From Candidatus Poriferihabitaceae bacterium (GTDB taxonomy: Bacteria > Pseudomonadota > Gammaproteobacteria > Arenicellales > Poriferihabitantaceae), in NCBI GenBank assembly GCA_965262585.1, contig OZ253546.1, positions 266,547-330,546 of the forward strand: a DNA stretch of 64,000 nucleotides, in the 5' to 3' direction. Under the pieces are notes generated by a model. The model saw only the letters and a program-made list of their open reading frames with translations. It had not been told where the DNA came from and ran no database searches. This document shows, piece by piece, positions 39,863-63,458 of this stretch. A program made the translations under genes and the position numbers. How positions within the stretch are numbered: the stretch's first letter is position 1; every line of letters begins with the position of its first letter.

Positions 39863-39905
39863 CGCTGCAACCGCTCCCACGCTAACCTATCAAGAGGAAA
39901 ACATT

Positions 39906-42197: not shown

Positions 42198-42340
42198 ACG
42201 CCGTCATCCCGCGCAAGCGGGAATCCAGTCATCATGGATGGCACGATTTAGTTTCGTGTATTCGCTTTCTGGATTCCCGATACGATGAAAAATATGGTCG
42301 CTGACGCTCCCTATTTTTCTATCGTTCGGGAATGACGGCG
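42198..42340 (-). repeat. REP composite (dRS3-like atcccgcgcaagcgggaat at 42206-42224 plus hairpin 42273-42333), inverted copy of the element at 149-209
   Basis: Direct comparison: the reverse complement of 42273-42340 aligns with 145-225. Confidence 0.7.
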
Positions 42341-42380
42341 GTAGTTTTACCGACTTCCTTTTTTCACCAACGGAATAACC

Positions 42381-45035: not shown

Positions 45036-45046
45036 TTTGAAAAATC

Positions 45047-45673
45047 ATGGATAAAAAAGAAGCAATCACCCGACTTTTAGAGATAAAAGGCAGAAACTTA
45101 CATGAATTAGCGGAAGAATATGAAGTGACTGTGGCCACCCCACGTGGAACTCAAAATAAGGGATGGGCCGGTCATGTATGCGAGCGCCACCTTGGTTTAG
45201 CACTTAACTCATCGCGAAGTCCCAATATGGGATCGTGGGAACTGAAAAGCACATCGCTAAAATATTTGGAAAGCGGAAAACTTTCCGTCAAAGAAACGAT
45301 GGCTATAACTATGATTGACCCTGTAGAGGTACGCCAAACGGAATTTGAACAAAGTCATATGCTAGCGAAACTCAATAAGGCCGTGGTCGTTGTACGAACA
45401 GTTGGAGAAAATTTCCGAGACCCAAGTTTTGTTCATTCTGTCATTGAAATCGAACTTGATGATGACCTATATGCAGCGGTAAAGGCGGACTACGATTTAG
45501 TGCGAAATATCCTGATCAAAGATCCGGAAAATGGATTCAGTAATCTAACCGGAAAAATGGGGTATTACATACAACCACGAACAAAAGGAGTCGGGCATGG
45601 AAGCATATCCAGAGCATTTTACGCTCGACCGAGATTTTTGAGGCTATTCTTGTCTTTAGACTCGAGTGTGTGA
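45047..45673 (+). CDS. MutH/Sau3AI-family endonuclease (probable GATC-specific restriction or nicking enzyme)
   Basis: Collinear by eye with E. coli MutH: LHELAEEY..NKGWAGHVCERHLG..GSWELKS..KLNKAVVVV..GYYIQPRTKG..RAFYARPRF. Confidence 0.7.
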   Translation: MDKKEAITRLLEIKGRNLHELAEEYEVTVATPRGTQNKGWAGHVCERHLGLALNSSRSPNMGSWELKSTSLKYLESGKLSVKETMAITMIDPVEVRQTEFEQSHMLAKLNKAVVVVRTVGENFRDPSFVHSVIEIELDDDLYAAVKADYDLVRNILIKDPENGFSNLTGKMGYYIQPRTKGVGHGSISRAFYARPRFLRLFLSLDSSV

Positions 45674-45706
45674 TTAAACGCCTTCACTAGTACGTTGATA
45701 CCACCG

Positions 45707-46972: not shown

Positions 46973-46991
46973 TCCGCGACCCACACGACTA

Positions 46992-47288
46992 ATGATCCGC
47001 ATCCCCTGCCCATTCTGTGGCGAACGCGACCACAGCGAATTCGCCTACGGCGGCGATGGCGCTATTGAATACCCGCCCCTCGACGCCCCGGCGGAAGCCT
47101 GGCACGAGGCGGTATTTTTGCGGGAAAACATTCGCGGGGTGCAACTGGAAACCTGGCATCACATCAGCGGCTGTCGCATGTGGCTGGTGGTGGAACGCGA
47201 CACCATGACCCACGAAATCCACGCCGTGCGTCCGGCACACGATGGCATTCGGTTGGCGTTGAAAAACCACCCGGTCAGCGAGCCATGA
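46992..47288 (+). CDS. mgdB: N-methylglutamate dehydrogenase subunit B (sarcosine oxidase delta-like)
   Basis: 98 aa. MIRIPCPFCGERDHSEFAYGG zinc-ribbon-type start typical of SoxD. Confidence 0.8.
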   Translation: MIRIPCPFCGERDHSEFAYGGDGAIEYPPLDAPAEAWHEAVFLRENIRGVQLETWHHISGCRMWLVVERDTMTHEIHAVRPAHDGIRLALKNHPVSEP

Positions 47289-50200
47289 CTTCCCGGCGGC
47301 TACCCGATGGCGGGCGCATCGACCGCGCCACCACCCTGCCCTTCACCTGGAATGGCCGCAAGTTGAACGGCCATCCCGGCGACACTCTGGCTTCCGCATT
47401 GCTTGCCAACGGCGTGCAACTGGTGGGCCGCAGTTTCAAGTATCACCGCCCACGCGGCATTCAGTCCGCCGGAGTCGAAGAATCCGGCGCCCTGATCACC
47501 GTCGGAGTCGGCGCGCGCCGCGATCCGAACGTCAAAGCCACGGTACAAGAACTGCATGCGGGATTGGTGGCGTGCGGTCAAAACGCCGTGCCGAACTTGC
47601 GTTTTGATGTGGGCGCGATCAACAACCTGTTTGGCAGATTCTTGTCCGCCGGTTTTTACTACAAGACCTTCATGGGCCCGCGCCTAGACCCGCGCAGGAA
47701 ATGGGGCGGCACGGCGTGGTGGATGCAATGCGAAAAAATTATCCGCCGCGCCGCCGGGCTGGGGCACGCATCCCGACAGCCGGATCCGGATTCATACGAA
47801 CACGGTCATGACTTTTGCGATGTGCTGGTGGTGGGCGCCGGCCCCGCCGGTTTGTCGGCGGCGACGGCGGCGGCAAGTGCCGGGCTGGATGTGCTGCTGG
47901 TGGATCAAGAACCGGAATTTGGCGGCGATCTTCTCAGTCAGCCGCCTACCCAATCCCGCGCCAAACTCGCGCAACTGCTGGCTGATGCGCATTCGGCGGG
48001 GGTTCGCAGCATGACCAGAACCACCGCGTTTGGTCTGTACGATTGCGGCGTCTCCGGGCTTCTTGAGCGCGTTACTGATCATTTGCCCGAGCATTTGACC
48101 GAGCCCGATCCGTGCTTGCCCCGCCAGCGATTTTGGACGGTGCGCGCACGCTATACCATCATCGCCACCGGCGCCCTGGAGCGACACTTCGCCTTCGGCA
48201 ACAACGACCGCCCCGGGGTGATGACGGTGGCCGCCGCACGAACTTATTTGAACCGCTATGGCGTGTTACCCGGCGAACGCATCGTGATGGCCACCAACAA
48301 CGATTCCACCTATCCGGTAGCGGCGGAACTGGCGGACGCCGGTGCCGGGGTTACTTTGCTCGATGCGCGGGCTGCAGTCGGAGACGAACTGCAACGCATG
48401 GCGGACGACCACGGCGTGGCGTTGCATAAAGCCCACGCGCCGCTGAAAGTCATCGGTGGCAAGGGTGTTAAGGCGTTGGAACTGGCGGTGGACGATGGCC
48501 ATGGCTGGAAGCCTCGAGGCAATGAACGGTGCGATCTGGTACTGGTGTCGGGCGGCTGGTCGCCAACCATTCATCTTTGTTCCCACCGCGGCTCGAAGCC
48601 GGTATGGAATGCGCAACTGGCCTGCTTTGTGGCGGCAAAGACCGATGAACCGATACTAGTCGCGGGTTCGGCGGCGGGCATCTGGAACGGCGATGACTGC
48701 GCGGCCTCCGGCACAGCCACCGGGATGGCGGCGGCACAAGCCCTCGGCCATGCCGCAGATAAAGATGTCGCCGGCAAAGATACCACCGCCATTGAATCCG
48801 GCGGCTGGCAAACTCCGCTTCGACCATTGTACGAAATTCGAGTGCCCGGCAAAAAATTGAAATCCTTCGTCGACTTTCAGAACGATGTTACCGCCGACGA
48901 CGTGCGCCTGGCACACCGCGAAGGGTTTGCCTCGGTGGAACATCTCAAACGCTACACCACCCTCGGCATGTCCACGGACGGCGGCAAGGTGGGTAATGTC
49001 ATCGGCCTCGCGCTCATGGCCGAAGCCCTGGGCCGTACAATCCCGCAAGTCGGAAGCACCGTATTCAGGCCGCCCTACACGCCGGTTTCGCTGGGCGCAT
49101 TGCGGGGCCGCAGCGTCGACCAACATTTCCGCCCGCTACGCCGCACCCCGATGCACCAATGGAACCTCGACCACGGCGCGGTCATGACCATGGCCGGGCT
49201 GTGGCATCGCCCGTGGTATTTCCCCCGAACCACCACTCAAACCCTCGCCGAGGCTTATGTGCGCGAAGCCGCCGCCGTGCGAGAGACGGTCGGGCTTTGC
49301 GATGTTACCTCCCTCGGCAAGATCGCCATCCAGGGACCGGACGCCACCCAATTCCTCGACCGCATCTACACCAACCCGTTCGCCAAACTGGCGGTCGGCA
49401 AAGCGCGCTACGGCATTATGTTGCGCGATGACGGCGTGGTCATGGACGACGGCACCACCTGGCGTCTGTCGGCAACCGAATACTTCATGACCACCACCAC
49501 CGCGCATGCCGCCAAAGTGATGGCGTGGCTTGAGGAATTGCTGCAAACCCGCTGGCCTACGCTCAGGGTGCAAGTGACTTCGGTGTCCGACCAATGGGCC
49601 GGATGCGCGGTGGCGGGGCCCAAATCCCGCGCCGTTCTGGACGCTTGCGTGGCGCATTCCGGGAGCGTGTCCGATGATGCGCTGCCGTTCATGGGCGTGG
49701 TCGAGATTCCCCTCAAAGGCGACATCCCGTGTCGCATCGCGCGCATCAGTTTTTCCGGTGAAATGGCATTCGAGGTCTATGTGCCATCCGATTACGCCAC
49801 CGCAATGATGGACTTGTTATGGGCTGAAGCGGAAGCGTCGGGCGGCTGCCTGTATGGTCTCGAAGCACTGGGTGCCCTGCGCATCGAAAAAGGCCATGTT
49901 ACCGGCGCGGAACTGGACGGGCGGGTAACCATTGACGACGCCGGGCTGGGCAAAATGGCCTCCCCCAACAAATCGTTCATCGGCAGCGCGTTGCGCAAGC
50001 GACCCGAACTGTTGCGAGACGACCGCCCGCAACTGGTCGGCATCAAACCGAAGAATCAGGGCGATCGATTTAACGCCGGGGCGATCCTCTGCCAACCAGA
50101 AAATATACCCGGCCTCGGCGACGGCTGGATTAGCGCAGTCACCCATTCCCCGGCGCTCGGACATTGGATCGGCATCGGGTTTATCGCAGGCGGGGCTGAA

Positions 50201-50314
50201 GTCTGGCAAGGCAAAGCGGTAGTCGCCGCCGACCCGGTGCGCGCCGGAAATACCGAAGTTGAAATCGTCTCACCCCATCAATTCGACCCGAGCGGGGAGC
50301 GGATGCGTGGCTGA
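47285..50314 (+). CDS. mgdC: N-methylglutamate dehydrogenase subunit C (sarcosine oxidase alpha-like, with GcvT-type folate domain)
   Basis: Start MTSRRLPDGGRI forms an ATGA overlap with mgdB. CDVLVVGAGPAGLSAA dinucleotide fold. C-terminal aminomethyltransferase-like region (ISFSGEMAFEVYVP, LRIEKGH). Confidence 0.8.
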   Translation: MTSRRLPDGGRIDRATTLPFTWNGRKLNGHPGDTLASALLANGVQLVGRSFKYHRPRGIQSAGVEESGALITVGVGARRDPNVKATVQELHAGLVACGQNAVPNLRFDVGAINNLFGRFLSAGFYYKTFMGPRLDPRRKWGGTAWWMQCEKIIRRAAGLGHASRQPDPDSYEHGHDFCDVLVVGAGPAGLSAATAAASAGLDVLLVDQEPEFGGDLLSQPPTQSRAKLAQLLADAHSAGVRSMTRTTAFGLYDCGVSGLLERVTDHLPEHLTEPDPCLPRQRFWTVRARYTIIATGALERHFAFGNNDRPGVMTVAAARTYLNRYGVLPGERIVMATNNDSTYPVAAELADAGAGVTLLDARAAVGDELQRMADDHGVALHKAHAPLKVIGGKGVKALELAVDDGHGWKPRGNERCDLVLVSGGWSPTIHLCSHRGSKPVWNAQLACFVAAKTDEPILVAGSAAGIWNGDDCAASGTATGMAAAQALGHAADKDVAGKDTTAIESGGWQTPLRPLYEIRVPGKKLKSFVDFQNDVTADDVRLAHREGFASVEHLKRYTTLGMSTDGGKVGNVIGLALMAEALGRTIPQVGSTVFRPPYTPVSLGALRGRSVDQHFRPLRRTPMHQWNLDHGAVMTMAGLWHRPWYFPRTTTQTLAEAYVREAAAVRETVGLCDVTSLGKIAIQGPDATQFLDRIYTNPFAKLAVGKARYGIMLRDDGVVMDDGTTWRLSATEYFMTTTTAHAAKVMAWLEELLQTRWPTLRVQVTSVSDQWAGCAVAGPKSRAVLDACVAHSGSVSDDALPFMGVVEIPLKGDIPCRIARISFSGEMAFEVYVPSDYATAMMDLLWAEAEASGGCLYGLEALGALRIEKGHVTGAELDGRVTIDDAGLGKMASPNKSFIGSALRKRPELLRDDRPQLVGIKPKNQGDRFNAGAILCQPENIPGLGDGWISAVTHSPALGHWIGIGFIAGGAEVWQGKAVVAADPVRAGNTEVEIVSPHQFDPSGERMRG

Positions 50315-50867
50315 TCGAATCTCCGCACTGCATGGACACTACGCCCACGGCACAACCGGCCCGGCGGATGCGGCCGGGATTGTGTTGCGCGAAATCACCG
50401 ACCTTGTCCTCCATCAAATCGCCGCATGGCCCGACACCCTGACGCAAGTTGGGAAACAAGCCGCGCAGGCGGCGAACGTACCGTCGGCACCCGGACCCGG
50501 CGCAGCCGCCGTATCCGCAACCGGCGCACTGCTTCGCATCGAACCATTAAAGTGGTGGATGATCGGCGGGAAAGCCCCGCAACTTAATCCCGAACAAGGA
50601 ACGACCCTGGATCTTTCCCACTCACGCACGCATTTGCGAATTAGCGGCGCACAAGCCGCCAAACTGCTCAACCGCCATCTCCCCCTCGACCTGCGCCCGG
50701 CATCGTTTCCAGTCGGCACCGTAGCATCAAGCGCGCTACACCATGTCGGCGTAACCCTGTGGCATTCACAGCACGGCCACGAGTTATTCATTCCACGCGG
50801 ATTTTCTTTGTCAATTTGGCAAGTATTACTCGAAAGCGCAGCGCAGTTTGGCGTTGAAATCCCTTGA
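50307..50867 (+). CDS. mgdD: N-methylglutamate dehydrogenase subunit D (sarcosine oxidase gamma-like)
   Basis: ~186 aa in the SoxG position. GTG 50307 overlaps the mgdC stop. The ORF-track start 50259 lies inside mgdC. Confidence 0.65.
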   Translation: MADRISALHGHYAHGTTGPADAAGIVLREITDLVLHQIAAWPDTLTQVGKQAAQAANVPSAPGPGAAAVSATGALLRIEPLKWWMIGGKAPQLNPEQGTTLDLSHSRTHLRISGAQAAKLLNRHLPLDLRPASFPVGTVASSALHHVGVTLWHSQHGHELFIPRGFSLSIWQVLLESAAQFGVEIP

Positions 50868-50985: not shown

Positions 50986-51675
50986 CCTACGCTTAAAACC
51001 GTATTTCGCCTTTGAGCAAGATGGTGTGTTCATCCGCGCCGTCGCCCTCGCGGCGTTCGCCCAGCAGGGTTACCTCATAGCGAGTGCCCGACTTGCACTT
51101 CATTCCGACTCGGTAACTGTCTTGGGAACCGAGGGTCATCTCTCCATACGGTGTCAATACCGCTTCCAAACCCCGCAACGATACGCCGTAGCCAATCTTT
51201 GCGTCCAAATACGCCCGGTAATCGGCCGTGGCATCACCGCCAGCCGCATCGGATACGCCATGATCCCATAACGCTTGTAGGTCGCTGCCGCTTTCCCCAT
51301 AGCCGGGGCTTAGGCCGAACGAAAATCCTTGCCCGTCCGCCCCCGGCAGCAATTTAACTTGACCGCTAATTCCCCATTTCTCATATTCGCCGTCATTGTC
51401 CAACAAAGTGCGCACGCGACCTTCCACGGTTACCCGTTTCGCCGGATTGCTGTAATGCAAACCAACCCCCACCTCCATTCCGCCGCCGGTCTGGCCATCG
51501 CCGCCGTCATAGCGAACGCCAACCTCCAACGATGGCGAAAACACTCCGCCGCCCGCCAATTCGTGCTTTCGTTTGGCTTCCATCGACAACCGAACCCGGG
51601 TGACATCCACTTCCAGTTCCGTGAAGTTGGCGTTGCCATCGACCACCAACTCAGCGCGCACTACCTCGCTTTTTA
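50986..51675 (-). repeat. 690-bp segment duplicated at 1321-2010 (3' end of the autotransporter gene)
   Basis: Constant offset of 49,665 nt. About 16 mismatches counted by eye. Same orientation. Confidence 0.9.
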
Positions 51676-54600
51676 CGCGAACTTCGGTCGTTCCCCTTTG
51701 CCACACCCGGCCGCTGCCGCCAATGCTGAGCGTGCGCAGGCTGAAGTCGCTCGAACGCGCCGCCGGCCCGGCCTCGGTAATCTCTAAATCGCCTTCGCCA
51801 TAGCCAACGGTCGCCCATACATCGACCACTCCACCGCTCCAGCCAAAATACGGATGCACTCCGGTCAAGTCGATTTTATATTCGCCTTCGTCAAGTCTAC
51901 CGGCGTTGTATTCGTAGTCTAGATCTCCCCGCAACCACGATACCGCCACGCCCGCCAACATATCTGCATGCACACGCGCATCAAAACCGATGTGAACACC
52001 GGACAACTCGCCATCCCAATCCAAGCCACCACTATCACCGGACAAATCTCGATACGCGCCGTCTCCCCATAAAACCGACGAAGACTCGGCCGCCGCACCG
52101 GCATTCAGCGGCAACACAAAGTCAGAGTCGCCCAACAGGTCTTTCAGGGCGTGCGTACCGTTCGCCATCGGCTCACCGTGGGCCATCAAGACGCCGGATA
52201 AACTGCGCTGCCCGCCAATGGTAACGCCCGCCGCCTGCCCTGACTGATTAGCCAGATTGGCTTGTTCGATGCGCCGCTTAATCGGACTGACCGTGCGATC
52301 CGCCAAAGCGCGCGTGACTTCCGGCAGGATCATCTCGTTCCGGGCGGCGGACAGATCATCGGCGGTGGCGATGGCGATGACCGTGATGATAAAGGTCACC
52401 GAATCCGTGCTGTTGCCATCCGTGGCGGTGTAGGTCGATTCGATTCTGCCCACTGTGGTCGGCGTGCCTGATAGGACGCGGCCAGTGTCGTCAAAGTTCA
52501 AACCGTCCGGCAGCGGTGTCAGCGTATAAGTCACGGTGCCGGTGCCGCCGGTTGCCTCGGGCATGGTCAGGGGCGTAATTTCCGTGTCCACAGTATAGGT
52601 CTGATTGCCCGGCGCATTCAGTGCCACTCCCGCCACTATGCTGGGATCGCTTACCGTCACATCCGCAGATATGATGACGACAAAGGCGGCGATGGCCATG
52701 CTGCCGTTTTCATCCATGGCGGTGTAGGTGAGTTCGGTTTCGCCCTCTGCGTTCGGCGTGCCGGACAGAACACGGGGGTCTGCGATAAAAGTCAGACCGG
52801 TCGGCAGTGGTGCCAATGTATAGGTCACCGTGCCGGTGCCGCCGGAGGCCATAGGCAAGGCCAAATTCGTAATCGCCATGTCCGTTGTGTAGGTTTGATT
52901 GCCCGGAGCGCTCAACGCCAACCCATTCGCCACGGTGATAGTAAAGGTAGCCATAGCGGTACTGCTGTTGGTATCCATTGCGGTGTAGGTTGCTGTAACC
53001 GTTTCCATTGTGGTCGGTGTGCCGGACAGAACACGGGTGGTTGCGATAAAAGTCAGACCGTTCGGCAGTGGTGCCAATGTATAGGTCACTGTGCCGGTGC
53101 CGCCGGTGGCCATAGGCAAGGCTAAATTCGTAATCGCCGTGTTCATTGTGTAGGTTTGATTGCCCGGGGCGTTCAACGCCAACCCATTCGCCACAGTGAT
53201 AGTAAAGGTATCCATAGCGGTACTGCCGTTGGTATCCATTGCGGTGTAGATTACTGTAACCGTTTCCATTGTGGTCGGTGTGCCGGACAGAACACGGGTG
53301 CCTGCGGTAAAAGTCAGACCGTTCGGCAGTGGTGCCAATGTATAGGTCACCGTGCCGGTGCCGCCAGAGGCCATAGGCAAGGCCAAGTCCGTAATCGCCG
53401 TGTTCATTGTGTAGGTTTGATTGCCCGGGGCGTTCAACGCCAACCTATTCGCCACGGTGATAGTAAAGGTAGCCATAGCGGTACTGCCGTTGGTATCCAT
53501 TGCGGTGTAGGTTGCTGTAATCGTCTGCATGGTGGTCGGTGTGCCGGACAGAACACGGGTGGTTGCGTTAAAGTTTAGACCGTCCGGCAGCGGTGTCAGC
53601 GTATAGGTCACCGTGCCGGTGCCGCCGGAGGCCATAGGCAAGGCCAAATTTGTAATCGCCGTGTTCATTGTGTAGGTTTGATTGCCCGGAGCGTTCAACG
53701 CCAACCTATTCGCCACGGTGATAGTAAAGGTATCCATAGCGGTACTGCCGTTGGTATCCATTGCGGTGTAGGTTGCTGTAACCGTTTCCATTGTGGTCGG
53801 TGTGCCGGACAGAACACGGGTGGTTGCGATAAAAGTCAGACCGTTCGGCAGTGGTGCCAATGTATAGGTCACTGTGCCGGTGCCGCCGGAGGCCATAGGC
53901 AAGGCCAAATTCGTAATCGCCATGTCCGTTGTGTAGGTTTGATTGCCCGGAGCGTTCAACGCCAACCCATTCGCCACGGTGATAGTAAAGGTATCCATAG
54001 CGGTACTGCCGTTGGTATCCATTGCGGTGTAGATTGCTGTAACCGTTTCCATTGTGGTCGGTGTGCCGGACAGAACACGGGTGCCTACGGTAAAAGTCAG
54101 ACCGTTCGGCAGTGGTGCCAATGTATAGGTCACCGTGCCGGTGCCGCCAGAGGCTATAGGCAAAGCCAAATTCGTAATCGCCGTGTTCATTGTGTAGGTT
54201 TGATTGCCCGGAGCGTTCAACGCCAAGCCATTCGCCACGGTGATAGTAAAGGTCGCCGATTGGCTGGCACCATTGCTATCCGTTGCGGTGTAAGTTGCTG
54301 TAACCGTCTGCATTGCGTTCGGCGTGCCGGACAGAACACGGCTATCCGCATCAAAAGTCAAACCGTTCGGCAACGACGCCAGCATATAAGTCAGCGGAGA
54401 AGTGCCGCCGGTTGCCGGGGCCAAGGGCAAGGCCGTAATCGCGGTGTTCATCGTGTAGGTTTGATTGTTCGGGGCGTTCAGCACCAACCCATTCGCCACG
54501 GTTATGATAAAGGTTGCCGTGGCGATACTGTTGTTGTTATCCGTTGCCGTATAGGTTGCGGTAATCGTCTGCATGGTGGTCGGTGTGCCAGACAGAACAC

Positions 54601-57600
54601 GGGTGCCTGCGTTAAAGTTTAGACCGGTCGGTAGCGGCATCAGTGTATAAGTCAGCGGAGTAGTGCCGCCGGTGGCCATATCCAAGGTCAAGTCCGTAAT
54701 CGCCGTGTCCATTGTGTAGGTTTGATTGCTTGGGGCATTCAACGCCAACCCATTCGCCACGGTGATGGTAAAGGTTGCCGTGGCGATGCTGTTGTTGTTA
54801 TCCATTGCGGTGTAGGTTGCGGTAATCGTCTGCATGGTGGTCGGTGTGCCAGACAGAACCCGAGTGCTTGCGTTAAAGTTTAGACCGGTCGGCAGCGGCA
54901 TTAGCGTATAGGTCAATGGAGTAGTGCCGCCGGTTGCCTCAGGCAAGGTCAAGTCCGTAATCGTGGCATCCATGGTATAGGTTTGATCGCCCGGCGCCGT
55001 GACCGCCACTCCCGCCGCCACGGTGACGGTAAAGGTTGCCGTGGCGATGCTGTTGTTGTTATCCGTTGCGGTATAGGTTGCGGTAATCGTCTGCATGGTG
55101 GTCGGTGTGCCGGACAGAACACGGGTGTCTGCGTTAAAGTTTAGACCGGTCGGTAGCGGCATCAGTGTATAAGTCAGCGGTGTGGTGCCGCCGGTTGCCG
55201 GGTCTAATGTCAAGTCCGTAATTGCCGTGTCCATTGTGTAGGTTTGATTGCTTGGGGCGTTCAGCACCAACCCATTCGCCACGGTTATGGTAAAGGTTGC
55301 CGTGGCGATGCTGTTGTTGTTATCCGTTGCGGTATAGGTTGCGGTAATCGTCTGCATGGTGGTCGGTGTGCCAGACAGAACCCGAGTGCTTGCGTTAAAG
55401 TTTAGACCGGTCGGTAGCGGCATCAGCGTATAAGTCAGCGGCGTGGTGCCGCCGGTGGCCATATCCAAGGTCAAGTCCGTAATCGCCGTGTCCATCGTGT
55501 AGGTTTGATTGCTTGGGGCGTTCAGTGCCAGTCCATTCGCCACGGTTATGGTAAAGGTTGCCGTGGCGATGCTGTTGTTGTTATCCGTTGCGGTATAGGT
55601 TGCGGTAATCGTCTGCATGGTGGTCGGTGTGCCGGACAAGACACGGGTGCTTGCGTTAAAGTTTAGACCGGTCGGTAGCGGCATCAGCGTATAAGTCAAC
55701 GGAGTAGTGCCGCCGGTTGCCTCAGGCAAAATCAAGTCCGTAATCGCGGTGTTCATTGTGTAGGTTTGATCGTCCGGCGCAGTTACCGCCACTCTCGCCG
55801 CCACGGTGATGGTAAAGGTTGCCGTGGCGATGCTGTTGTTGTTATCCGTTGCCGTATAGGTTGCGGTAATCGTCTGCATGGTGGTCGGTGTGCCAGACAA
55901 GACACGGGTGGTTGCGTTAAAGTTTAGACCGGTCGGTAGCGGCGACAGCGTATAGGTCAACGGAGTGGTGCCGCCGGTTGCCTCAGGCAAAATCAAGTCC
56001 GTAATTGCGGTGTTCATTGTGTAGGTTTGATCGACCGGTGCAGTTACCGCTACTCTCGCCGCCACGGTGATGGTAAAGGTGTCCGTAGCGATACTGTTGT
56101 TGTTATCCGTTGCGGTATAGGTTGCGGTAATCGTCTGCATGGTGGTCGGTGTGCCGGACAGAACCCGAGTGCTTGCGTTAAAGTTTAGACCGGTCGGTAG
56201 CGGCGACAGCGTATAGGTCAGGGGAGTAGTGCCGCCGGTGGCCGGGTCTAATGTCAAGTCCGTAATCGCCGTGTTCATTGTGTAGGTTTGATTGCTTGGG
56301 GCGTTCAGTGCCAGTCCATTCGCCACGGTTATGGTAAAGGTTGCCGATTGACTCGCGCTATTGTTATCTGTGACGGTGTAGGTTGGCATAACCTCTTGCA
56401 TTGCAGTCGGCGTGCCGGACAGAACCCGAGTGCTTGCGTTAAAGTTTAGACCGGTCGGTAGCGGTATCAGCGTATAAGTCAGCGGAGTAGTGCCGCCGGT
56501 TGCCTCAGGCAAGGTCAAGTCCGTAATTGCCGTGTCCATTGTGTAGGTTTGATTGCTTGGGGTATTCAACGCCAGTCCATTCGCCACGGTTATGGTAAAG
56601 GTCGCCGATTGGCTGGCACCATTGTCATCCGTGACGGTGTAGATTGGCATAACCTCTTCCATTGCAGTCGGCGTGCCGGACAAGGTACGGGTGCTTGCGT
56701 TAAAGTTTAGACCGGTCGGTAGCGGCATCAGCGTATAAGTCAACGGAGTGGTGCCGCCGGTTGCCTCAGGCAAGGGCAAGTCCGTAATCGCAGTGTCCAT
56801 TGTGTAGGTTTGATTGCTTGGGGCGTTCAGTGCCAACCCATTCGCCACGGTTATGGTAAAGGTTGCCGATTGACTCGCGCCATTGTTATCTGTGACGGTG
56901 TAGATTGGCATAACCTCTTCCATTGCAGTCGGCGTGCCGGACAAGGTACGGGTGCCTGCGTTAAAGTTTAGACCGGTCGGTAGCGGCATCAGCGTATAGG
57001 TCAATGGCGTGGTGCCGCCGGTTGCCTCAGGCAAACTCAAGTCCGTAATTGCGGTGTCCATTGTGTAGGTCTGATTGCTTGGGGCGTTCAGTGCCAACCC
57101 ATTCGCCACGGTTATGGTAAAGGTTGCCGATTGACTCGCGCCATTGTTATCTGTGACGGTGTAGATTGGCATAACCTCTTCCATTGCAGTCGGCGTGCCA
57201 GACAAGGTACGGGTGCTTGCGGTAAAAGTTAGACCGTCCGGCAGCGGCATCAGCGTATAAGTCAGCGGCGTAGTGCCGCCGGTTGCCTCAGGCAAACTCA
57301 AGTCCGTAATTGCGGTGTCCATTGTGTAGGTTTGATTGCTTGGGGCATTCAACGCCAGTCCATTCGCCACGGTTATGGTAAAGGTTGCCGATTGACTCGC
57401 GCCATTGTTATCTGTGACGGTGTAGGTTGGCATAACCTCTTGCGTTGTAGTCGGCGTGCCAGACAAGGTACGGGTGCTTGCGGTAAAAGTTAGACCGTCC
57501 GGCAGCGGCATCAGCGTATAAGTCAGCGGCGTAGTGCCGCCGGTTGCCTCAGGCAAACTCAAGTCCGTAATCGCCGTGTCCATTGTGTAGGTTTGATTGC

Positions 57601-60600
57601 TTGGGGCGTTCAGTGCCAACCCATTCGCCACGGTTATGGTAAAGGTTGCCGATTGACTCGCGCTATTGTTATCTGTGACGGTGTAGATTGGCATAACCTC
57701 TTCCATTGCAGTCGGCGTGCCAGACAAGGTACGGGTGCTTGCGGTAAAAGTTAGACCGTCCGGCAGCGGTGTCAGCGTATAAGTCAGCGGCGTGGTGCCG
57801 CCGGTTGCCTCAGGCAAACTCAAGTCCGTAATTGCGGTGTCCATTGTGTAGGTTTGATTGCTTGGGGCGTTCAGTGCCAACCCATTCGCCACGGTTATGG
57901 TAAAGGTTGCCGATTGACTCGCGCTATTGTTATCTGTGACGGTGTAGATTGGCATAACCTCTTCCATTGCAGTCGGCGTGCCGGACAAGGTACGGGTGCT
58001 TGCGGTAAAAGTTAGACCGGTCGGTAGCGGCATCAGTGTATAGGTCAATGGAGTAGTGCCGCCGGTTGCCTCAGGCAAACTCAAGTCCGTAATTGCCGTG
58101 TCCATTGTGTAGGTCTGATTGCTTGGGGCGTTCAGTGCCAACCCATCCGCCACGGTTATGGTAAAGGTTGCCGATTGACTGGCACCATTGTTATCTGTGG
58201 CGGTGTAGATTGCTTCAACCGTTTCCATTGCAATCGGCGTACCGGATAGAACACGGCTGTCCACATCAAAATCCAAACCGTCCGGCAGTGGCATCAGCAT
58301 ATAAGTCAGGTCACCGGTGCCGCCGGTGGCCGGGTCTAAGGTCAAGTCCGTAATCGCCGTATCGATGGTGTAGGTTTGATCACCCGGCACAGTGACCTCC
58401 ACCCCCGCCGCCACAGTGACGGTAAAGGTATCCATAGCGATACTACCGTTGTCATCCGTGGCGGTGTAGGTCAAGGTAACCGGTTGCGCTGTTGCGGTGG
58501 TCGGCGTGCCGGAGAGGGTGCGGTTATTGGCGTCAAAGTTTAGACCGGGCACGGCGGTTGCCAACGCCGTGCTACTCGGCCCGGTCAGGGTATAGGTCGC
58601 GGTGCCGGTGCCGCCGGTGGCCTCTGGCAGGGTCAAGTCCGTAATCGCCGTGTCGGTGGTGTAGGTCTGATTATCCGGCGCCGTGATCTCCACGGCGTCT
58701 TCCACGGTGATGGCGACCGTATCCGATGCCGACACCGTAAATTCGGTGGTAATCTTCAGTTCGAACTCCAACTCCAACATCGTACCCGCCGCCACCCCAC
58801 CCGGCGCAGTGAAAGTCGCACGGGCGGTATCCGCATTTTCCAAATCCACCGTCGGCGTGCCACCGGTCTGCCGCCAAGAATATATCAGCGGCGTGGCTGA
58901 TATTGGGTCAATGTGACCGATGCTCTCTTCGCCATTCAGGGTAACGGTCGCGCCCTCTGCCACGGTTTGCGGATCGCCGGCCTCGGCCATCGGTTGGGAG
59001 ACCACCAGGATAATTACCGCTGCCGTTACCGATTCGTTACCGGCTGCGTCCGTGACTTCCAGCACCACATCAAGTCTGTGGGAGGCGCCCGTATCCGGCA
59101 ATTCCTGCGTCACAAGCGTCACCACAGCGCTCGTTCGGACGCCAGTCAAGATGTTCGAGTCGTCGAACACCACCCATCGATAGGTCAGCCCTTGACCTAA
59201 GGGGTCCACACTGCTGCTACTATCTAGAGTGACGGTTTCGCCTTCCAGAAAGACAGCCGTGAGGGGAGTGGGAAGAGTGGGTGGTCGGTTCCCCGGTATG
59301 ATAGCGTGGGGAGTCGACACTTCAATCACGGCAACCGGGTCGTCATTCGATAAAACGAGTATCGCGAAACCGGAAAGTAGCGTCTTCGGCCGCGATTCCC
59401 CGCCCAGTTCATCCCGCACCACCAGCGAAACGATCAGATCAGTCGCAGTCCCAACTGGCACATTCGGCGCGACAAAGGTCGGGCGAACCGGATCCGTCAG
59501 GTCGAGGGTGACATCCACATCTACCCGCACACGCGAACCTCTTTCCTCAGCACCAAGATAGCTCCAGATATAGGTCAAATTACCGTCATCACCATCCGGG
59601 TCTGAACTGCCGCTACCGTCCAGAGTGACGGTGTCGCCTGACATAACCGTTGCCGGCCAGATGAAGGTGGCGATCGGCAAATGATTCATCGGCGTGATCG
59701 TGCCCGTGGCGATGGGGTCGGTCAAAATGATTCCGGCTGGCAAAGCAGCAACGGTGGACAGCGTCACCGTGAAATCTTCGTCTCTCTCGACATGCCTATC
59801 CGTGAGGCTCGTCACGATAATCTCCGTTTCCGTACTTCCCGCCGGAATGGTCAAGGCGCGGTTCGTCACCGCCGTATAGTCTCTGCCCGCCGTCGCCGTG
59901 CCGTCGCTCGTAGACCAAGTCAGCCCTATATCGACCGCAGATGCTTTCGTCAACCGTATCGCGAAAATAAAGTCATCCCCTTCTGTTCCCGTCGCATCAT
60001 CAATGGTCATGGTCGCCGTGTCGTTCTCTTCGATGGTGCCCGTGGCTATGGGGTCGGTAAAAGTGACTCCGCTCGGCAAAGCAGTGGTAACCGACAGCGT
60101 CACCGTGAAATTCTCGTCTTCCTCGACCAGCGTATCTTCGCGGCTCGTCACGATAATCGCCGCTGACCTATCGCCCGCCGGAATGGTCAGGGCAACATCG
60201 GTCGCCGGCCTGTAGTCGGCGTTCGCCGTCGCCGTGTCGTCGCTCGTAGACCAAGTCAGTCCTATATCTACCGCCGCTGCTTGCGTCAACTGTATCGCGA
60301 AAACTAAGTCACCCCCTTCCGTTATTGCTGCATCATCAATCGTCATGGTCGCCGTGTCGTCATTCTCGATGACGCCCGTGGCTGTGGTGTTGTTGACGGT
60401 CACGATTGGTCCCGAACCCATTATGGGCAACACTTCCACCGTGAAGGACTCGTCTTCCTCGACCCGCGCATCATCGATGCTCATCACCGTTATCGCCGCT
60501 GCCGTCTCGCCCGCGGGAATCGTCAAGATACGGTTCGTCACTGCTGTGTAGTCATCGTCCGCCGGCGTTGCCGTCGCTTCAAGCGTCGACCAATTGAGCA

Positions 60601-63154
60601 TCACATCGGCGGCGACCGCCCGCTCCAGCGATACCGCAAAAGAAAGCGCGTCACCTTCCACCGCCCTCGCATCGGCGATGCTCACCACCGCCTCATCGTT
60701 GTCTTCGATGGTGCCTATTGCCGTGTCATCTCCCAAAAACACCCTGGCCGGCAAAGTGCCGGCCGCCGACAGCATCACCGTGAAATCCTCGTCGCCCTCA
60801 ACCAGCGTATCCTCCGTGCTCATGACCGTTACCGTCGCTCCCGTAGCACCCGAGGGAATCGTCAAGACAGAGTTCACCGCCGTATAGTCATCGCCCGCCG
60901 TCGCCGAGCGGTCTGCGGTCGCCACATTGAACGCCAAATCCCCAAGTGCCTGCTGACTCAGTGATACCGCGAAAGAAAGGGTGCCACCTTCCATCACCGC
61001 CGCATCGGCGATTGCCACTCTCATCCCATCGTTATCCTCGATGGTGCCCGTGGCAGTGGCAGTGGAGTCAATACTCAGCGCGCCGTCGAAGTCATCCGGC
61101 AGGGTCAGCGTCACCACAAAAGATTCGTCCCTCTCAAACAAATTATCTTCGATGCTTGGCACCGTGATTGCCGCTGTCGTCATGCCGGCGGGGATCATGA
61201 TCGAACCACTTGCTCCTTGGTAATCTTCGCCCTCCCGCACCTCTGCGTTGGAAGGCTCGATGCTCCAATCCACCTGCACAGCCTCAGCCACCTGCTGGCT
61301 CATGGTGATTGGGAAGACCAGATCCGTCCCCTCTTGCGCCGAGACATCGAAAATATGTATGACCGCCGAATCATCATTCAGGATGCGGCCAGTGGCTTGG
61401 ATCATGTTCATCGCACCGCCCGCGAATGAAACTGCGGCGGGCAAATCATCGATGGTGGAGAAGGTGAGCGTAAAAGTTTCGTCTCGTTCGACTACGTTGT
61501 CCTCACGGCCGGGCACGGTGATAAAATAGCCCGTCGCACCAAACGGGAACCGGTCCTCACCTATGGTAGAACGGTAGTCCATTCCCGCTACCACGGTCGT
61601 GGCGTTTGCCATCGCCGTGCCATCTGCGGTAGACCATCCGAGTCGCGCCTCATACCCATTAGCGACCAGATAGGGGTGAAAGTTTACAAAGAATATTACA
61701 TCATCACCCTCATCCGCCTCCACCTCATCGATACTCACGAGTACACTAATAGGCTCATTATCCAGAATGGCTGCGCGGGTGAGGCGGGTGAAATTGACTC
61801 CGGCCGGTAGCGGGTCGGTAGCGACTTCGGATAATTCCAGCGTAAAGAACGCGATGCGTTTGAGTATATCGTCATCGATTGTGTTCACCGTAAACGAGGC
61901 TTGTGTTTGAAACGGAGGGAATACCAAAACACCGGAGTCGCCCCTGTAGTCCACCCCGTCAACCGCCGTGAAGTTGGCTGCCCCTGTCCTTCTTGCAAAT
62001 TCCCGCAACGCGGGAGTCGCTGTCGATCCTTCCAGCGTCCTCCAGTTGAAACTCAACTCCGCGGGGAACGCCCGATCGAGGGTCGCTATAAAAGTGAATT
62101 GCTCGCCTTCACGCACAATACTGCTGCTGCTATCGATAGATAAATGTGCCGTCGGCGAATCATCCAGCACGGCGATGGTCACCTCGTCGGTAGAATTGCT
62201 GTTGCCCAAGTCGGTCACCGTTAGCCTGAAGGTCAACATCTCCAAGTTCGCTGCGGACCGACTCGGCGCGATAAAGGTCGGGGTGGCGGAGCGTTCATCA
62301 GTCAGCGACACAGACGTCCCGCCGATTTGCTCCCAGCGATAACTCAAAACATCTCCAATATCGGCATCTCTACTGCCGCGGCCATCGAGCATGACGGACA
62401 CGCCTTCGACGACAGTTTGATCGGCATCGGCATTGGCAACCGGCGTCGTCAGGTTAGGTATGGAGATGGCCACAGAAGTATTGGTATTGCCAACGCTGTT
62501 TACTGCCCAGACTTGATAACTATATTCGACGTTGGGGGACGAAATATCTGTGTCGGTGTAGGTAAATACCCGTGTACCCAAAATGGCAATGATGGATTGC
62601 TGTATAAAATTTGTAGTTGAATCCCTGCGAAACACCCAGTAACTACCGGTAGTGGTGAAATACAAATCCCCAGCGACTAAGGGTCGCTGCCAGTTCAGGG
62701 TCACCGCTCTGCTCCCCGCATTGTAAGAAGCACGGAGATCTCGCACCATGCTCGGTGCCACAGAAGGGCCGGCACTTATCTGAAACACATCAGACGGCGG
62801 GCCGATTGCATCGCCGTTGTATAGCCTAGCTTGGAAGTAATTGGGGCCGTTGCCGTCTAATGGAATAGTAAAAAATCCTTGCGCACCGGGAGGGTTTGCT
62901 ATGGAGAAAGCGCGAAATTCGCCATCGCCGACCCGATGTTCGTAGTGCAAGGAAGTACCGAGCGGGATGGAGATGCCCAGCGTATCGTGAGATACCTTAA
63001 CGCGCCCATCGTCGAGTACGGCCGCATCGAAGTAGGGCACTTTCGGCAGCACAATCGGTTGTGTTTGCGTCTCGGCTTCAGATGACCACCCAGCGAGCAG
63101 GCCAAGGGGCAGCAACAACACAAGGAAACTTCGGTGAAAGAACAGCCTGCACAT
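50993..63154 (-). CDS. Giant (~4,053 aa) type Va autotransporter-like adhesin with FN3-, PKD-, Calx-beta- and He_PIG/dystroglycan-type Ig-like modules
   Basis: Signal-like MCRLFFHRSFLVLLLPLGLLAG from ATG 63154; the ORF-track start 63166 is a TTG. 7 Calx-beta-like units (DY..G.L.IPAG...I.V...D...E.DE.F.V.L). 24 repeats with the LP.GL.F...R.LSGTPT motif. C-terminal beta-barrel-like ~300 aa ending LLKGEIRF. Confidence 0.85.
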   Translation of the reverse strand: MCRLFFHRSFLVLLLPLGLLAGWSSEAETQTQPIVLPKVPYFDAAVLDDGRVKVSHDTLGISIPLGTSLHYEHRVGDGEFRAFSIANPPGAQGFFTIPLDGNGPNYFQARLYNGDAIGPPSDVFQISAGPSVAPSMVRDLRASYNAGSRAVTLNWQRPLVAGDLYFTTTGSYWVFRRDSTTNFIQQSIIAILGTRVFTYTDTDISSPNVEYSYQVWAVNSVGNTNTSVAISIPNLTTPVANADADQTVVEGVSVMLDGRGSRDADIGDVLSYRWEQIGGTSVSLTDERSATPTFIAPSRSAANLEMLTFRLTVTDLGNSNSTDEVTIAVLDDSPTAHLSIDSSSSIVREGEQFTFIATLDRAFPAELSFNWRTLEGSTATPALREFARRTGAANFTAVDGVDYRGDSGVLVFPPFQTQASFTVNTIDDDILKRIAFFTLELSEVATDPLPAGVNFTRLTRAAILDNEPISVLVSIDEVEADEGDDVIFFVNFHPYLVANGYEARLGWSTADGTAMANATTVVAGMDYRSTIGEDRFPFGATGYFITVPGREDNVVERDETFTLTFSTIDDLPAAVSFAGGAMNMIQATGRILNDDSAVIHIFDVSAQEGTDLVFPITMSQQVAEAVQVDWSIEPSNAEVREGEDYQGASGSIMIPAGMTTAAITVPSIEDNLFERDESFVVTLTLPDDFDGALSIDSTATATGTIEDNDGMRVAIADAAVMEGGTLSFAVSLSQQALGDLAFNVATADRSATAGDDYTAVNSVLTIPSGATGATVTVMSTEDTLVEGDEDFTVMLSAAGTLPARVFLGDDTAIGTIEDNDEAVVSIADARAVEGDALSFAVSLERAVAADVMLNWSTLEATATPADDDYTAVTNRILTIPAGETAAAITVMSIDDARVEEDESFTVEVLPIMGSGPIVTVNNTTATGVIENDDTATMTIDDAAITEGGDLVFAIQLTQAAAVDIGLTWSTSDDTATANADYRPATDVALTIPAGDRSAAIIVTSREDTLVEEDENFTVTLSVTTALPSGVTFTDPIATGTIEENDTATMTIDDATGTEGDDFIFAIRLTKASAVDIGLTWSTSDGTATAGRDYTAVTNRALTIPAGSTETEIIVTSLTDRHVERDEDFTVTLSTVAALPAGIILTDPIATGTITPMNHLPIATFIWPATVMSGDTVTLDGSGSSDPDGDDGNLTYIWSYLGAEERGSRVRVDVDVTLDLTDPVRPTFVAPNVPVGTATDLIVSLVVRDELGGESRPKTLLSGFAILVLSNDDPVAVIEVSTPHAIIPGNRPPTLPTPLTAVFLEGETVTLDSSSSVDPLGQGLTYRWVVFDDSNILTGVRTSAVVTLVTQELPDTGASHRLDVVLEVTDAAGNESVTAAVIILVVSQPMAEAGDPQTVAEGATVTLNGEESIGHIDPISATPLIYSWRQTGGTPTVDLENADTARATFTAPGGVAAGTMLELEFELKITTEFTVSASDTVAITVEDAVEITAPDNQTYTTDTAITDLTLPEATGGTGTATYTLTGPSSTALATAVPGLNFDANNRTLSGTPTTATAQPVTLTYTATDDNGSIAMDTFTVTVAAGVEVTVPGDQTYTIDTAITDLTLDPATGGTGDLTYMLMPLPDGLDFDVDSRVLSGTPIAMETVEAIYTATDNNGASQSATFTITVADGLALNAPSNQTYTMDTAITDLSLPEATGGTTPLTYTLMPLPTGLTFTASTRTLSGTPTAMEEVMPIYTVTDNNSASQSATFTITVANGLALNAPSNQTYTMDTAITDLSLPEATGGTTPLTYTLTPLPDGLTFTASTRTLSGTPTAMEEVMPIYTVTDNNSASQSATFTITVANGLALNAPSNQTYTMDTAITDLSLPEATGGTTPLTYTLMPLPDGLTFTASTRTLSGTPTTTQEVMPTYTVTDNNGASQSATFTITVANGLALNAPSNQTYTMDTAITDLSLPEATGGTTPLTYTLMPLPDGLTFTASTRTLSGTPTAMEEVMPIYTVTDNNGASQSATFTITVANGLALNAPSNQTYTMDTAITDLSLPEATGGTTPLTYTLMPLPTGLNFNAGTRTLSGTPTAMEEVMPIYTVTDNNGASQSATFTITVANGLALNAPSNQTYTMDTAITDLPLPEATGGTTPLTYTLMPLPTGLNFNASTRTLSGTPTAMEEVMPIYTVTDDNGASQSATFTITVANGLALNTPSNQTYTMDTAITDLTLPEATGGTTPLTYTLIPLPTGLNFNASTRVLSGTPTAMQEVMPTYTVTDNNSASQSATFTITVANGLALNAPSNQTYTMNTAITDLTLDPATGGTTPLTYTLSPLPTGLNFNASTRVLSGTPTTMQTITATYTATDNNNSIATDTFTITVAARVAVTAPVDQTYTMNTAITDLILPEATGGTTPLTYTLSPLPTGLNFNATTRVLSGTPTTMQTITATYTATDNNNSIATATFTITVAARVAVTAPDDQTYTMNTAITDLILPEATGGTTPLTYTLMPLPTGLNFNASTRVLSGTPTTMQTITATYTATDNNNSIATATFTITVANGLALNAPSNQTYTMDTAITDLTLDMATGGTTPLTYTLMPLPTGLNFNASTRVLSGTPTTMQTITATYTATDNNNSIATATFTITVANGLVLNAPSNQTYTMDTAITDLTLDPATGGTTPLTYTLMPLPTGLNFNADTRVLSGTPTTMQTITATYTATDNNNSIATATFTVTVAAGVAVTAPGDQTYTMDATITDLTLPEATGGTTPLTYTLMPLPTGLNFNASTRVLSGTPTTMQTITATYTAMDNNNSIATATFTITVANGLALNAPSNQTYTMDTAITDLTLDMATGGTTPLTYTLMPLPTGLNFNAGTRVLSGTPTTMQTITATYTATDNNNSIATATFIITVANGLVLNAPNNQTYTMNTAITALPLAPATGGTSPLTYMLASLPNGLTFDADSRVLSGTPNAMQTVTATYTATDSNGASQSATFTITVANGLALNAPGNQTYTMNTAITNLALPIASGGTGTVTYTLAPLPNGLTFTVGTRVLSGTPTTMETVTAIYTAMDTNGSTAMDTFTITVANGLALNAPGNQTYTTDMAITNLALPMASGGTGTVTYTLAPLPNGLTFIATTRVLSGTPTTMETVTATYTAMDTNGSTAMDTFTITVANRLALNAPGNQTYTMNTAITNLALPMASGGTGTVTYTLTPLPDGLNFNATTRVLSGTPTTMQTITATYTAMDTNGSTAMATFTITVANRLALNAPGNQTYTMNTAITDLALPMASGGTGTVTYTLAPLPNGLTFTAGTRVLSGTPTTMETVTVIYTAMDTNGSTAMDTFTITVANGLALNAPGNQTYTMNTAITNLALPMATGGTGTVTYTLAPLPNGLTFIATTRVLSGTPTTMETVTATYTAMDTNSSTAMATFTITVANGLALSAPGNQTYTTDMAITNLALPMASGGTGTVTYTLAPLPTGLTFIADPRVLSGTPNAEGETELTYTAMDENGSMAIAAFVVIISADVTVSDPSIVAGVALNAPGNQTYTVDTEITPLTMPEATGGTGTVTYTLTPLPDGLNFDDTGRVLSGTPTTVGRIESTYTATDGNSTDSVTFIITVIAIATADDLSAARNEMILPEVTRALADRTVSPIKRRIEQANLANQSGQAAGVTIGGQRSLSGVLMAHGEPMANGTHALKDLLGDSDFVLPLNAGAAAESSSVLWGDGAYRDLSGDSGGLDWDGELSGVHIGFDARVHADMLAGVAVSWLRGDLDYEYNAGRLDEGEYKIDLTGVHPYFGWSGGVVDVWATVGYGEGDLEITEAGPAARSSDFSLRTLSIGGSGRVWQRGTTEVRVKSEVVRAELVVDGNANFTELEVDVTRVRLSMEAKRKHELAGGGVFSPSLEVGVRYDGGDGQTGGGMEVGVGLHYSNPAKRVTVEGRVRTLLDNDGEYEKWGISGQVKLLPGADGQGFSFGLSPGYGESGSDLQALWDHGVSDAAGGDATADYRAYLDAKIGYGVSLRGLEAVLTPYGEMTLGSQDSYRVGMKCKSGTRYEVTLLGERREGDGADEHTILLKGEIRF
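52380..58690 (-). repeat. In-frame tandem array, 24 units of mostly 261 nt (87 aa)
   Basis: The landmark aggtttgatt recurs at 52891, 53152, 53413, 53674, 53935, 54196, 54457, 54718, 54979 and 55240, spaced exactly 261 nt. Some neighbouring units are identical at protein level. Confidence 0.9.
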
Positions 63155-63458
63155 TATCCGCCCCAATTCAAATTGTGTGTGGGGGGGCTATGTGCGCGGC
63201 ATGAGAAGCAACCTTTTCAATCGAATCAATGTTAGATTCAAGAGCAATTAATCGGGCAATACCCGGCACATGCTTTTCATGAAAAGCCAATAAAATCTGT
63301 GTGGCTAAATGCTTCATATAATGCACCCCAAAACAGGATTAGGGTACTTATAACACATTCACCGCCCAAAAAAGTTCAACTTCCCCCCAATTCCCTACGG
63401 GTTGCTGGTTATTGGCCGCCGTAATGCTCACATTTCCCGCCGCATCCCGCCCCCTCGT

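Follow-up and report, generated by a model that had tools for sequence, protein, structure and literature searches.

A giant putative adhesin with β-sandwich passenger modules and an autotransporter-related C-terminal domain of predicted enlarged size in a Candidatus Poriferihabitaceae bacterium

Contig OZ253546.1 of a Candidatus Poriferihabitaceae bacterium (Gammaproteobacteria, Arenicellales; GenBank assembly GCA_965262585.1) carries, within the 64,000-nucleotide stretch analysed here (contig positions 266,547 to 330,546; hereafter the window, in whose numbering coordinates are given), a single very long gene that had been proposed from the sequence alone to encode a giant autotransporter, with a passenger built from immunoglobulin (Ig)-like, Calx-beta and PKD modules in place of a β-helix. 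The proposed ~12.2-kb open reading frame (ORF) is indeed intact: it occupies positions 50993–63166 of the minus strand, on which all of its features described below lie, comprises 4,057 codons when counted from a TTG, and closes with a stop codon at 50993–50995. Translation probably begins with the ATG at 63154 (codon 5 of the ORF), which is preceded by GGGGCGG and would yield a product of 4,053 amino acids (aa); the protein collection contains exactly this product as P0110, encoded on a 2.60-Mb contig. Counting from the TTG, aa 5–31 (63074–63154) form what is, as read by eye, a three-region Sec signal peptide (MCRLFFHRSFLVLLLPLGLLAGWSSEA/ETQ) with a basic n-region (R, H, R), a hydrophobic core of 12–14 residues and a small-residue SEA cleavage site, in agreement with the signal-like peptide noted earlier, and the N-termini of relatives resemble it. 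The adjoining N-terminal segment, which would represent the distal tip of the protein (aa 32–140, 62747–63073), has no family match, as a Pfam scan at E ≤ 0.01 returned nothing for the first 110 mature residues.

Between the tip and the C-terminal region, the passenger consists of a string of modules whose proposed order could be followed with Pfam and with profile hidden Markov models built from the giant protein's own repeats (self-HMMs). Only the FN3-like module at its beginning (aa 141–234, 62465–62746) lacks above-cut-off support, scoring 18.8 bits against PF00041 (cut-off 25; E 0.002). PKD-like units number four by self-HMM (aa 251–331, 1173–1264, 1305–1386, and 1401–1486), one of which precedes the Calx-beta block (module at aa 246–333, 62168–62431) and three of which follow it (aa 1173–1486, 58709–59650); Pfam recognises K319L-like PKD (PF22352) in two stretches, one in the first module and one in the later group, plus Sde0182_C (PF21027) in the latter. 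The Calx-beta block itself (aa ~342–1165, 59672–62143) comprises seven modules, found by Pfam as seven stretches of PF03160 (E 1.7e-55) and by the self-HMM as seven units at aa 380–1159, and contains a DNA repeat of 336 bp at 59696–60527. Across all seven modules, the acidic motifs ED(N/T)xxExDExF and (E/D)ND recur. The Ca2+-binding clusters of the Calx-beta domain resemble such motifs, which suggests a stalk that may be stiffened at these modules by the calcium of seawater.

By far the largest part of the passenger is formed by 24 He_PIG-type Ig-like modules (aa 1495–3597, 52376–58684), which Pfam detects as 23 stretches of PF05345 (E 1e-189) and the self-HMM as 24 units. They repeat with a period of 87 aa and include three blocks of units that are 85–97 % identical, and the last unit, which directly adjoins the linker to the C-terminal domain, is divergent. 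At the DNA level, Tandem Repeats Finder reports an array at 52753–58471 (period 261 bp, 21.9 copies, 87 % match) that coincides with this block; no two He_PIG units in the window are identical, the highest pairwise identity being 98 % and the longest common exact stretch 140 bp. A GC skew of +0.15 to +0.17 with a negative AT skew at 54000–58000 likewise coincides exactly with the array and is attributed to the codon composition of Thr/Ala/Gly-rich repeats on the minus strand, a replication signal not being favoured.

All recognised passenger modules (He_PIG, Calx-beta, PKD, FN3-like) thus belong to β-sandwich families according to Pfam and the self-HMMs, and no pertactin-, PATR-, AIDA-type or other β-helix family was matched by Pfam in the passenger, as the original prediction had stated. 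The composition is equally distinctive. Cysteine occurs in the giant protein only at C6, within the signal peptide, and at C4024, within the predicted barrel, leaving a passenger of ~3,570 aa free of cysteine, in keeping with passage through a narrow pore; in relatives, cysteine accounts for 0.14 % of residues (over 166,000 and 240,000 residues). The protein is very acidic (418 D+E versus 143 K+R) and rich in threonine (17.8 %).

Giant arrays of Calx-beta and Ig-like repeats are reminiscent of adhesins of the LapA/SiiE type, which are secreted by type I secretion systems (T1SS), and near-identical 261-bp repeats could be misassembled, raising the possibilities of a T1SS substrate on the one hand and of an assembly chimera or pseudogene on the other. 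Giant adhesins with repeats-in-toxin (RTX) sequences, as exported by T1SS, carry no Sec signal, have RTX repeats and a T1SS signal at their C-terminus, and adjoin genes for ATP-binding cassette (ABC) and membrane fusion proteins. By contrast, the protein studied here carries a signal peptide, contains not a single GGxGxD (RTX) motif and ends in a C-terminal β domain with a terminal phenylalanine. A search for the C-terminal signals that would have pointed elsewhere was equally negative, as the last 450 aa matched no NCBIfam model of any kind, which would include any T1SS-signal or type IX secretion system (T9SS)-tail models among them. As had been stated earlier, T1SS genes are likewise missing from the window, a Pfam scan of its ~50 ORFs having revealed no genes for T1SS, TpsB/POTRA, Bam or Tam components. 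Misassembly is contradicted by an orthologue of 4,136 aa (P0111, same 90 % cluster) on a 1.94-Mb contig of an independent assembly. It is intact and has the same neighbours, namely an ABC transporter on one side and sarcosine-oxidase-like genes, a MutH-like gene and a methylase on the other, and it aligns with the giant protein at 89 % identity over 3,603 residues, the first ~1,500 being nearly identical. The orthologue contains 25 He_PIG units rather than 24; given the shared neighbourhood and the lack of identical units, this change in copy number is real, and a chimeric origin of the ORF is very unlikely. Taken as a whole, we regard the T1SS and chimera explanations as so improbable that they can hardly compete with an export route of the type V kind.

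The C-terminal region is a conserved module of ~450 aa, composed of a helix of 34 aa, a spacer of ~55 aa and a β domain of ~360 aa, and is accordingly larger than the ~300-aa domain that had been proposed, even though the β character and the chain end ...LLKGEIRF of that proposal are borne out. The previously noted helical linker corresponds to a conserved hydrophilic helix at aa 3609–3642 (52241–52342; RNEMILPEVTRALADRTVSPIKRRIEQANLANQ), which AlphaFold predicts at residues 2–35 of the modelled construct with a predicted local distance difference test score (pLDDT) of ~90, and for which the family alignments give the consensus LNExILPEVxRA...RIxQA. It is followed by the spacer (aa 3643–3696, 52079–52240), whose motifs GGQxxL...HGE and GSDFVLPLNA are conserved in three family alignments and which adopts short helices and strands in both AlphaFold models described below; it was without a match in a Pfam scan and is a candidate plug. 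The β domain (aa 3697–4057, 50996–52078) shows similarity to the autotransporter family PF03797 over its first ~100 aa (51770–52069): when the last 450 aa were scanned alone, residues 93–192 aligned to profile positions 2–101 with 31.2 bits (cut-off 26), and a sub-fragment of 185 aa gave 33.9 bits over positions 2–112, while no Pfam family was matched by the last 260 aa. Relatives with a longer Pfam match pair PF03797 positions 2–212 (of 255) with only the first ~200 of their ~360 barrel residues, which leaves ~160 residues where a classical barrel has two strands (the last 43 positions). Throughout the family, the chain terminates in the conserved motif GE(V/I)RF. The signal by which the β-barrel assembly machinery (BAM) recognises its substrates is a C-terminal motif ending in an aromatic residue, and KGEIRF fits this description.

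An AlphaFold2 model of the module (model 1; 66-sequence alignment; mean pLDDT 79.6, predicted TM-score 0.75, pLDDT >90 over most of residues 100–300) places the 34-residue helix first, then the 55-residue segment and finally 18 β-strands in a single up-down meander, and a second model, computed for a family member of 37 % identity (model 2, pLDDT 82.8), likewise has 18 strands. The turns of the meander span 2–7 residues, except that strands 8 and 9 are set apart by 12 residues and strands 13 and 14 by a disordered loop. Across 278 homologues, all 18 predicted strands are amphipathic, alternating between a lipid and a polar face by 2.1–5.4 hydropathy units compared to a mean of 0.9 in the helix. 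In a Foldseek search of the Protein Data Bank (PDB), the top matches of model 1 were the barrels of BrkA, NalP, AIDA-I, EspP, Hbp, and EstA (E 3e-6 to 6e-5), all of the classical type Va. The C-terminal domain is therefore predicted, on the basis of these models, to be a PF03797-related translocator with about six strands more than the usual 12; neither model shows the 12 strands and plugged helix that had been anticipated, nor does any solved barrel match well. By standard barrel geometry, the Cα radius would grow from ~11 Å (n = 12, S = 14) to ~16.5 Å (n = 18, S = 20), and one may speculate that the extra conserved spacer reflects a wider channel in need of a larger plug. An origin of the larger barrel by internal duplication was considered and rejected, as hhalign comparisons of its thirds gave probabilities of at most 9 %.

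A more conservative explanation is that the domain is an ordinary 12-strand type Va barrel, the six extra strands being extracellular or periplasmic hairpins or an over-prediction by AlphaFold, so that only the passenger would be unusual. This is in line with the PF03797 match and with the classical barrels heading the structural hits of model 1, as well as with pLDDT values that drop to 60–80 over the final third of the domain and with its disordered loop (construct residues 349–375); furthermore, closure of the barrel is putative, mean-field direct coupling analysis (DCA) with 137 and then 278 barrel sequences (effective numbers 78 and 149) having recovered only some neighbouring hairpins. 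It is difficult to reconcile, however, with the recurrence of 18 strands in a member of merely 37 % identity, with the alternation of lipid and polar faces in every one of these strands, with the uninterrupted meander and its mostly short turns, and with the ~160 residues left over once PF03797 has been aligned. The low target-normalised TM-scores, only 0.46–0.61 to solved 12-strand barrels over the two models and 0.44–0.61 for the type Va barrels heading the hits of model 1, likewise speak against it. We consider this explanation unlikely, if still the most serious of the competitors.

The earlier interpretation is thus borne out in its broad lines, and we favour the reading, to which we assign a probability of roughly 0.7, that the gene encodes a giant cell-anchored adhesin that is exported by a type V-like route via a variant translocator larger than the classical one. 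Several observations weigh against it. The PF03797 similarity is weak and partial, exceeds the cut-off only over the first ~100 residues of the β domain and does not appear in a scan of the whole protein at E ≤ 0.01. Sequence searches of the PDB with profiles of the module gave no hit, not even at E ≤ 10, the above TM-scores to type Va barrels are low, and model 2 retrieved TonB-dependent receptors mixed with autotransporter barrels, all with TM-scores <0.52. The strand count is a prediction read from AlphaFold secondary structure; in the DCA, the signal between strand 1 and strand 18 was indistinguishable from background. Finally, the BAM genes and those of the translocation and assembly module (TAM) of this genome are located outside the window.

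The original prediction had regarded the combination of a C-terminal barrel with Ig-like modules as an unusual hybrid; this view does not hold, because the barrel travels with β-sandwich passengers throughout a family of thousands of clusters. A word-indexed search with the module returned 76 proteins of up to 53 % identity, many of them bearing He_PIG, Calx-beta or PKD annotations alongside PF03797 and some representing fragments of frameshift-split genes, and some family members are named "autotransporter domain-containing protein" by the annotation pipeline PGAP. With HMMER, 9,385 hits at E ≤ 1e-3 were obtained among 1.84 billion cluster representatives, 5,655 of them at E ≤ 1e-30, which puts the size of the family at no less than 5,655 clusters at 50 % identity. 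The best 150 hits cover essentially the whole 457-position profile and place it no more than ~50 residues from the C-terminus, with two N-terminally truncated entries among them; the host proteins range from 430 to 7,796 aa among the matches listed. In a sample of 34 diverse members, PF03797 was matched in 23 (best E 1.6e-14), and the passengers contained He_PIG (16 members), Big_9 (12), PKD (9), FN3 (6), HYR (6), Calx-beta (5), Ig_2 (2), and several cadherin types (4–6 each). No β-helix family was among the 25 most frequent families listed for this sample, all of which, PF03797 apart, are β-sandwich or repeat families.

A scan of one genome per species, based on an alignment of 19 closer sequences, yielded 236 relatives, of which the best 74 loci fall in 19 metagenome-assembled genomes (MAGs). 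These belong to Gammaproteobacteria (Ca. Spongiihabitans, Ca. Poriferihabitaceae and other Arenicellales), Alphaproteobacteria (including Thermohalobaculum), Nitrospinales, Nitrospirales, and Ca. Binatia; the closest genomic relatives, all of them MAGs of uncultured bacteria, thus span at least four phyla, and only some of these MAGs are named for sponges. The barrel-bearing ORFs at the 74 loci range from ~400 aa to >3,800 aa, 21 of them extending past the 10-kb flank. Two MAGs contribute 15 loci each and hence carry at least 15 copies per genome. A Thermohalobaculum MAG (L005–L018, L061, L063) holds fifteen paralogues whose barrels are 97–100 % identical and whose passengers span 1,059 to >3,780 aa, a pattern suggesting that genes were converted or that a barrel cassette has been shuffled very recently. 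At 17 of the 74 loci (e. g., L046, L047, L054, and L067), another family member lies within 10 kb on the same strand, the genes forming tandem arrays. Across lineages, the barrel of a Nitrospinales MAG (L027) is 95 % identical to that of an alphaproteobacterial MAG (L035), and further pairs reach 80 % (Gammaproteobacteria/Alphaproteobacteria) and 75 % (Binatia/Gammaproteobacteria), which reflects either recent horizontal transfer or errors in binning. In a Ca. Binatia MAG (L001, 7560–12355), a relative with signal peptide, He_PIG modules and barrel is split into ORFs of 786 aa and 788 aa by a frameshift within the repeats, with a DDE transposase just upstream; splits of this kind explain why many database homologues look short and seem to be without signal peptides.

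The surroundings of the relatives also bear on a further alternative, namely that the barrel is a mere anchor or pore and that the passenger either is moved by another partner, such as TAM or a type II secretion system (as for InvL), or faces the periplasm. The translocation function is indeed a putative one, and model 2 resembles plugged TonB-dependent receptors as much as it does autotransporters. Yet, apart from paralogues of the family itself, no accessory gene was conserved in more than five genomes in an all-versus-all BLAST of 2,841 flanking ORFs (±10 kb, 74 loci, 19 MAGs), which fits self-contained export, and the window holds no secretion gene. Moreover, the cysteine-free passenger is what a narrow pore would call for, and the order of helix and barrel is that of type Va. 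He_PIG, PKD, cadherin-like, and Calx-beta families are typical of extracellular proteins, and it is modules of these families that make up the passengers. A passive anchor accordingly appears quite improbable, clearly more so than an ordinary 12-strand barrel.

For export by the favoured type V-like route, the following sequence of events can be envisaged. The precursor would be exported by Sec via its N-terminal signal peptide, and the cysteine-free, very acidic passenger would stay unfolded in the periplasm until BAM recognises ...KGEIRF and inserts the ~360-aa β domain with its 18 predicted strands. The passenger might then be threaded as a hairpin, C-terminus first, so that the divergent last He_PIG unit next to the linker would emerge and fold before all others. 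Successive folding of the 24 He_PIG, three PKD-like and seven Calx-beta modules and eventually of the PKD and FN3-like modules could ratchet the chain out and prevent back-sliding, and the conserved helix and 55-aa spacer would remain in the lumen as a plug. How such a passenger might be exported had been raised as a puzzle; the route is not without precedent, as hairpin threading and sequential folding have been demonstrated for the Ig-like passengers of type Ve (PMC6555100). The product would then form a stalk, some 36 modules and roughly 100–150 nm long and presumably stiffened by Ca2+ at the Calx-beta modules, that could present its uncharacterised tip for binding to the host matrix, host cells or other bacteria.

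On a broader level, the module family is large and extends across phyla, and its translocator is, according to the models, probably atypical and enlarged. Considerably more tentative, and in our estimation rather less probable than not, is the idea that the 450-aa module constitutes a distinct, undescribed type V subclass with a ~18-strand translocator and its own helix-plus-spacer plug, which may have co-evolved with β-sandwich passengers and possibly tolerates bulkier or partly folded segments. In this scenario, the module would be a mobile cassette that is kept near-identical among the paralogues of a genome and apparently exchanged between phyla sharing a sponge host, serving as a general toolkit for the display of host-like adhesion modules. 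Irrespective of this, the family combines a PF03797-related, apparently larger barrel with β-sandwich passengers in proteins of up to ~7,800 aa and hence offers natural tests of whether C-to-N export is possible without a β-helix, of whether barrel size co-varies with cargo type, and of the role of the extra conserved spacer. For symbiosis research, it offers a concrete and testable proposal for how the giant eukaryote-like proteins characteristic of sponge symbionts might be exported, with an anchor module common to several phyla, and in display technology Ig-like domains could be mounted on cell surfaces with the module as their scaffold.

The neighbourhood of the giant gene in the window is otherwise dominated by metabolic and housekeeping functions (prs, rplY, pth, ychF, amino-acid ABC transporters, and leucine catabolism). 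The gene is convergent with a soxG-like gene, the last of four sarcosine-oxidase-like subunits (β, δ at 46992–47288, α, and γ) encoded on the plus strand at 45695–50867. Upstream of these, 38303–43718 (plus strand) comprises genes for a glutamine synthetase (GS)-like protein, a class-II amidotransferase (GATase), a GXGXG protein, and a glutamate-synthase-like (GltB-like) protein; we take the combined layout to represent the N-methylglutamate pathway for the use of methylamine (gmaS, mgsABC, mgdABCD) and not a true sarcosine oxidase. The two halves of this cluster are separated by an inserted island at 44172–45673 (plus strand) that encodes an N6/N4 DNA methylase and a MutH/Sau3AI-like endonuclease at a GC content of 0.463 compared to ~0.57. 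In an orthologous contig (L076), the corresponding place is occupied by the MutH-like gene and the beginning of the methylase gene, and the island is probably an acquired restriction-modification pair. Between ychF and a gene for a creatinase/M24-like peptidase, an ORF of 716 aa (15087–17237, plus strand) shows only sub-threshold similarity to VWA_2 (23.6 bits), and three other assemblies encode counterparts of 716 aa that share its 90 %-identity cluster. YchF itself has homologues of 72 % identity in a Poriferihabitaceae MAG and of 66 % identity in Ca. Spongiihabitans, other named relatives stemming from MAGs labelled "Gammaproteobacteria bacterium"; the organism is accordingly an uncultured gammaproteobacterium and presumably lives in a sponge host.

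Among known secretion systems, the T1SS-exported RTX adhesins such as LapA and SiiE come close in their passengers, which are likewise very long, acidic and cysteine-free arrays of Ig-like and Calx-beta modules with a probable capacity to bind Ca2+ and a likely function in adhesion. They differ from the giant protein in their export features, considering its signal peptide, the complete lack of GGxGxD and the lack of such transporter genes in the window. The C-terminal sorting domain of T9SS substrates was not matched by NCBIfam or Pfam, and two-partner secretion (type Vb) is set apart by its TPS domain, which is missing here, as well as by a TpsB/POTRA gene, which is absent from the window and not conserved near relatives.

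In the literature, we found nothing relevant on He_PIG or Calx-beta in conjunction with autotransporters or on 18-stranded autotransporters, and the only prior mention of proteins of this kind that we came across is a single sentence. Rubin-Blum et al. (2019) described ORFs of up to 14.6 kb encoding cadherin-like and bacterial Ig-like domains in methanotrophic sponge symbionts; some of these proteins carry autotransporter β-domains, and such proteins were near-identical between unrelated symbionts of one host (PMC6474228). That work notes the β-domain in one sentence and analyses neither the translocator and its size nor how far the family extends or how many copies there are, and no paper dealing with translocator, size or family extent was found elsewhere. 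The family described here shares both the make-up and the cross-lineage similarity of these eukaryote-like proteins, a likeness drawn from their published description. Domain repeats, as expected for eukaryote-like proteins of sponge symbionts, are present in the giant protein, and its nearest relatives include MAGs of Ca. Spongiihabitans and Ca. Poriferihabitaceae.

Regarding its overall organisation, the giant protein is most similar to type Va autotransporters (NalP, EspP, BrkA, AIDA-I, Hbp, EstA), with which it shares a Sec signal, an N-terminal passenger, a helical linker and a C-terminal β domain in one polypeptide, the PF03797 match of this domain, an aromatic terminal β-signal, a cysteine-poor passenger, and the top Foldseek hits of model 1. 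Classical type Va barrels have 12 strands with a pore of about 10 × 12.5 Å, and their passengers are mostly β-helical (PMC9289746, PMC6555100). In contrast, the giant protein is predicted to have ~18 strands over ~360 aa, only the first 100–200 residues of its β domain are collinear with PF03797, a conserved spacer of 55 aa is found between the 34-aa helix and strand 1, and its passenger is made up of β-sandwich modules instead of the typical, though not obligatory, β-helix. Inverse autotransporters of type Ve (intimin, invasin) differ in having an N-terminal 12-strand barrel, a C-terminal passenger and often a periplasmic LysM domain, whereas the barrel is C-terminal here and export would proceed from C to N; no intimin/invasin family was matched by Pfam in the giant protein. 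Nonetheless, they export tandem Ig-like domains through their barrel by means of a hairpin, with sequential folding as the drive (PMC6555100), and with their passenger likewise being a string of Ig-like domains, type Ve offers the best functional analogy for the proposed export of the giant protein.

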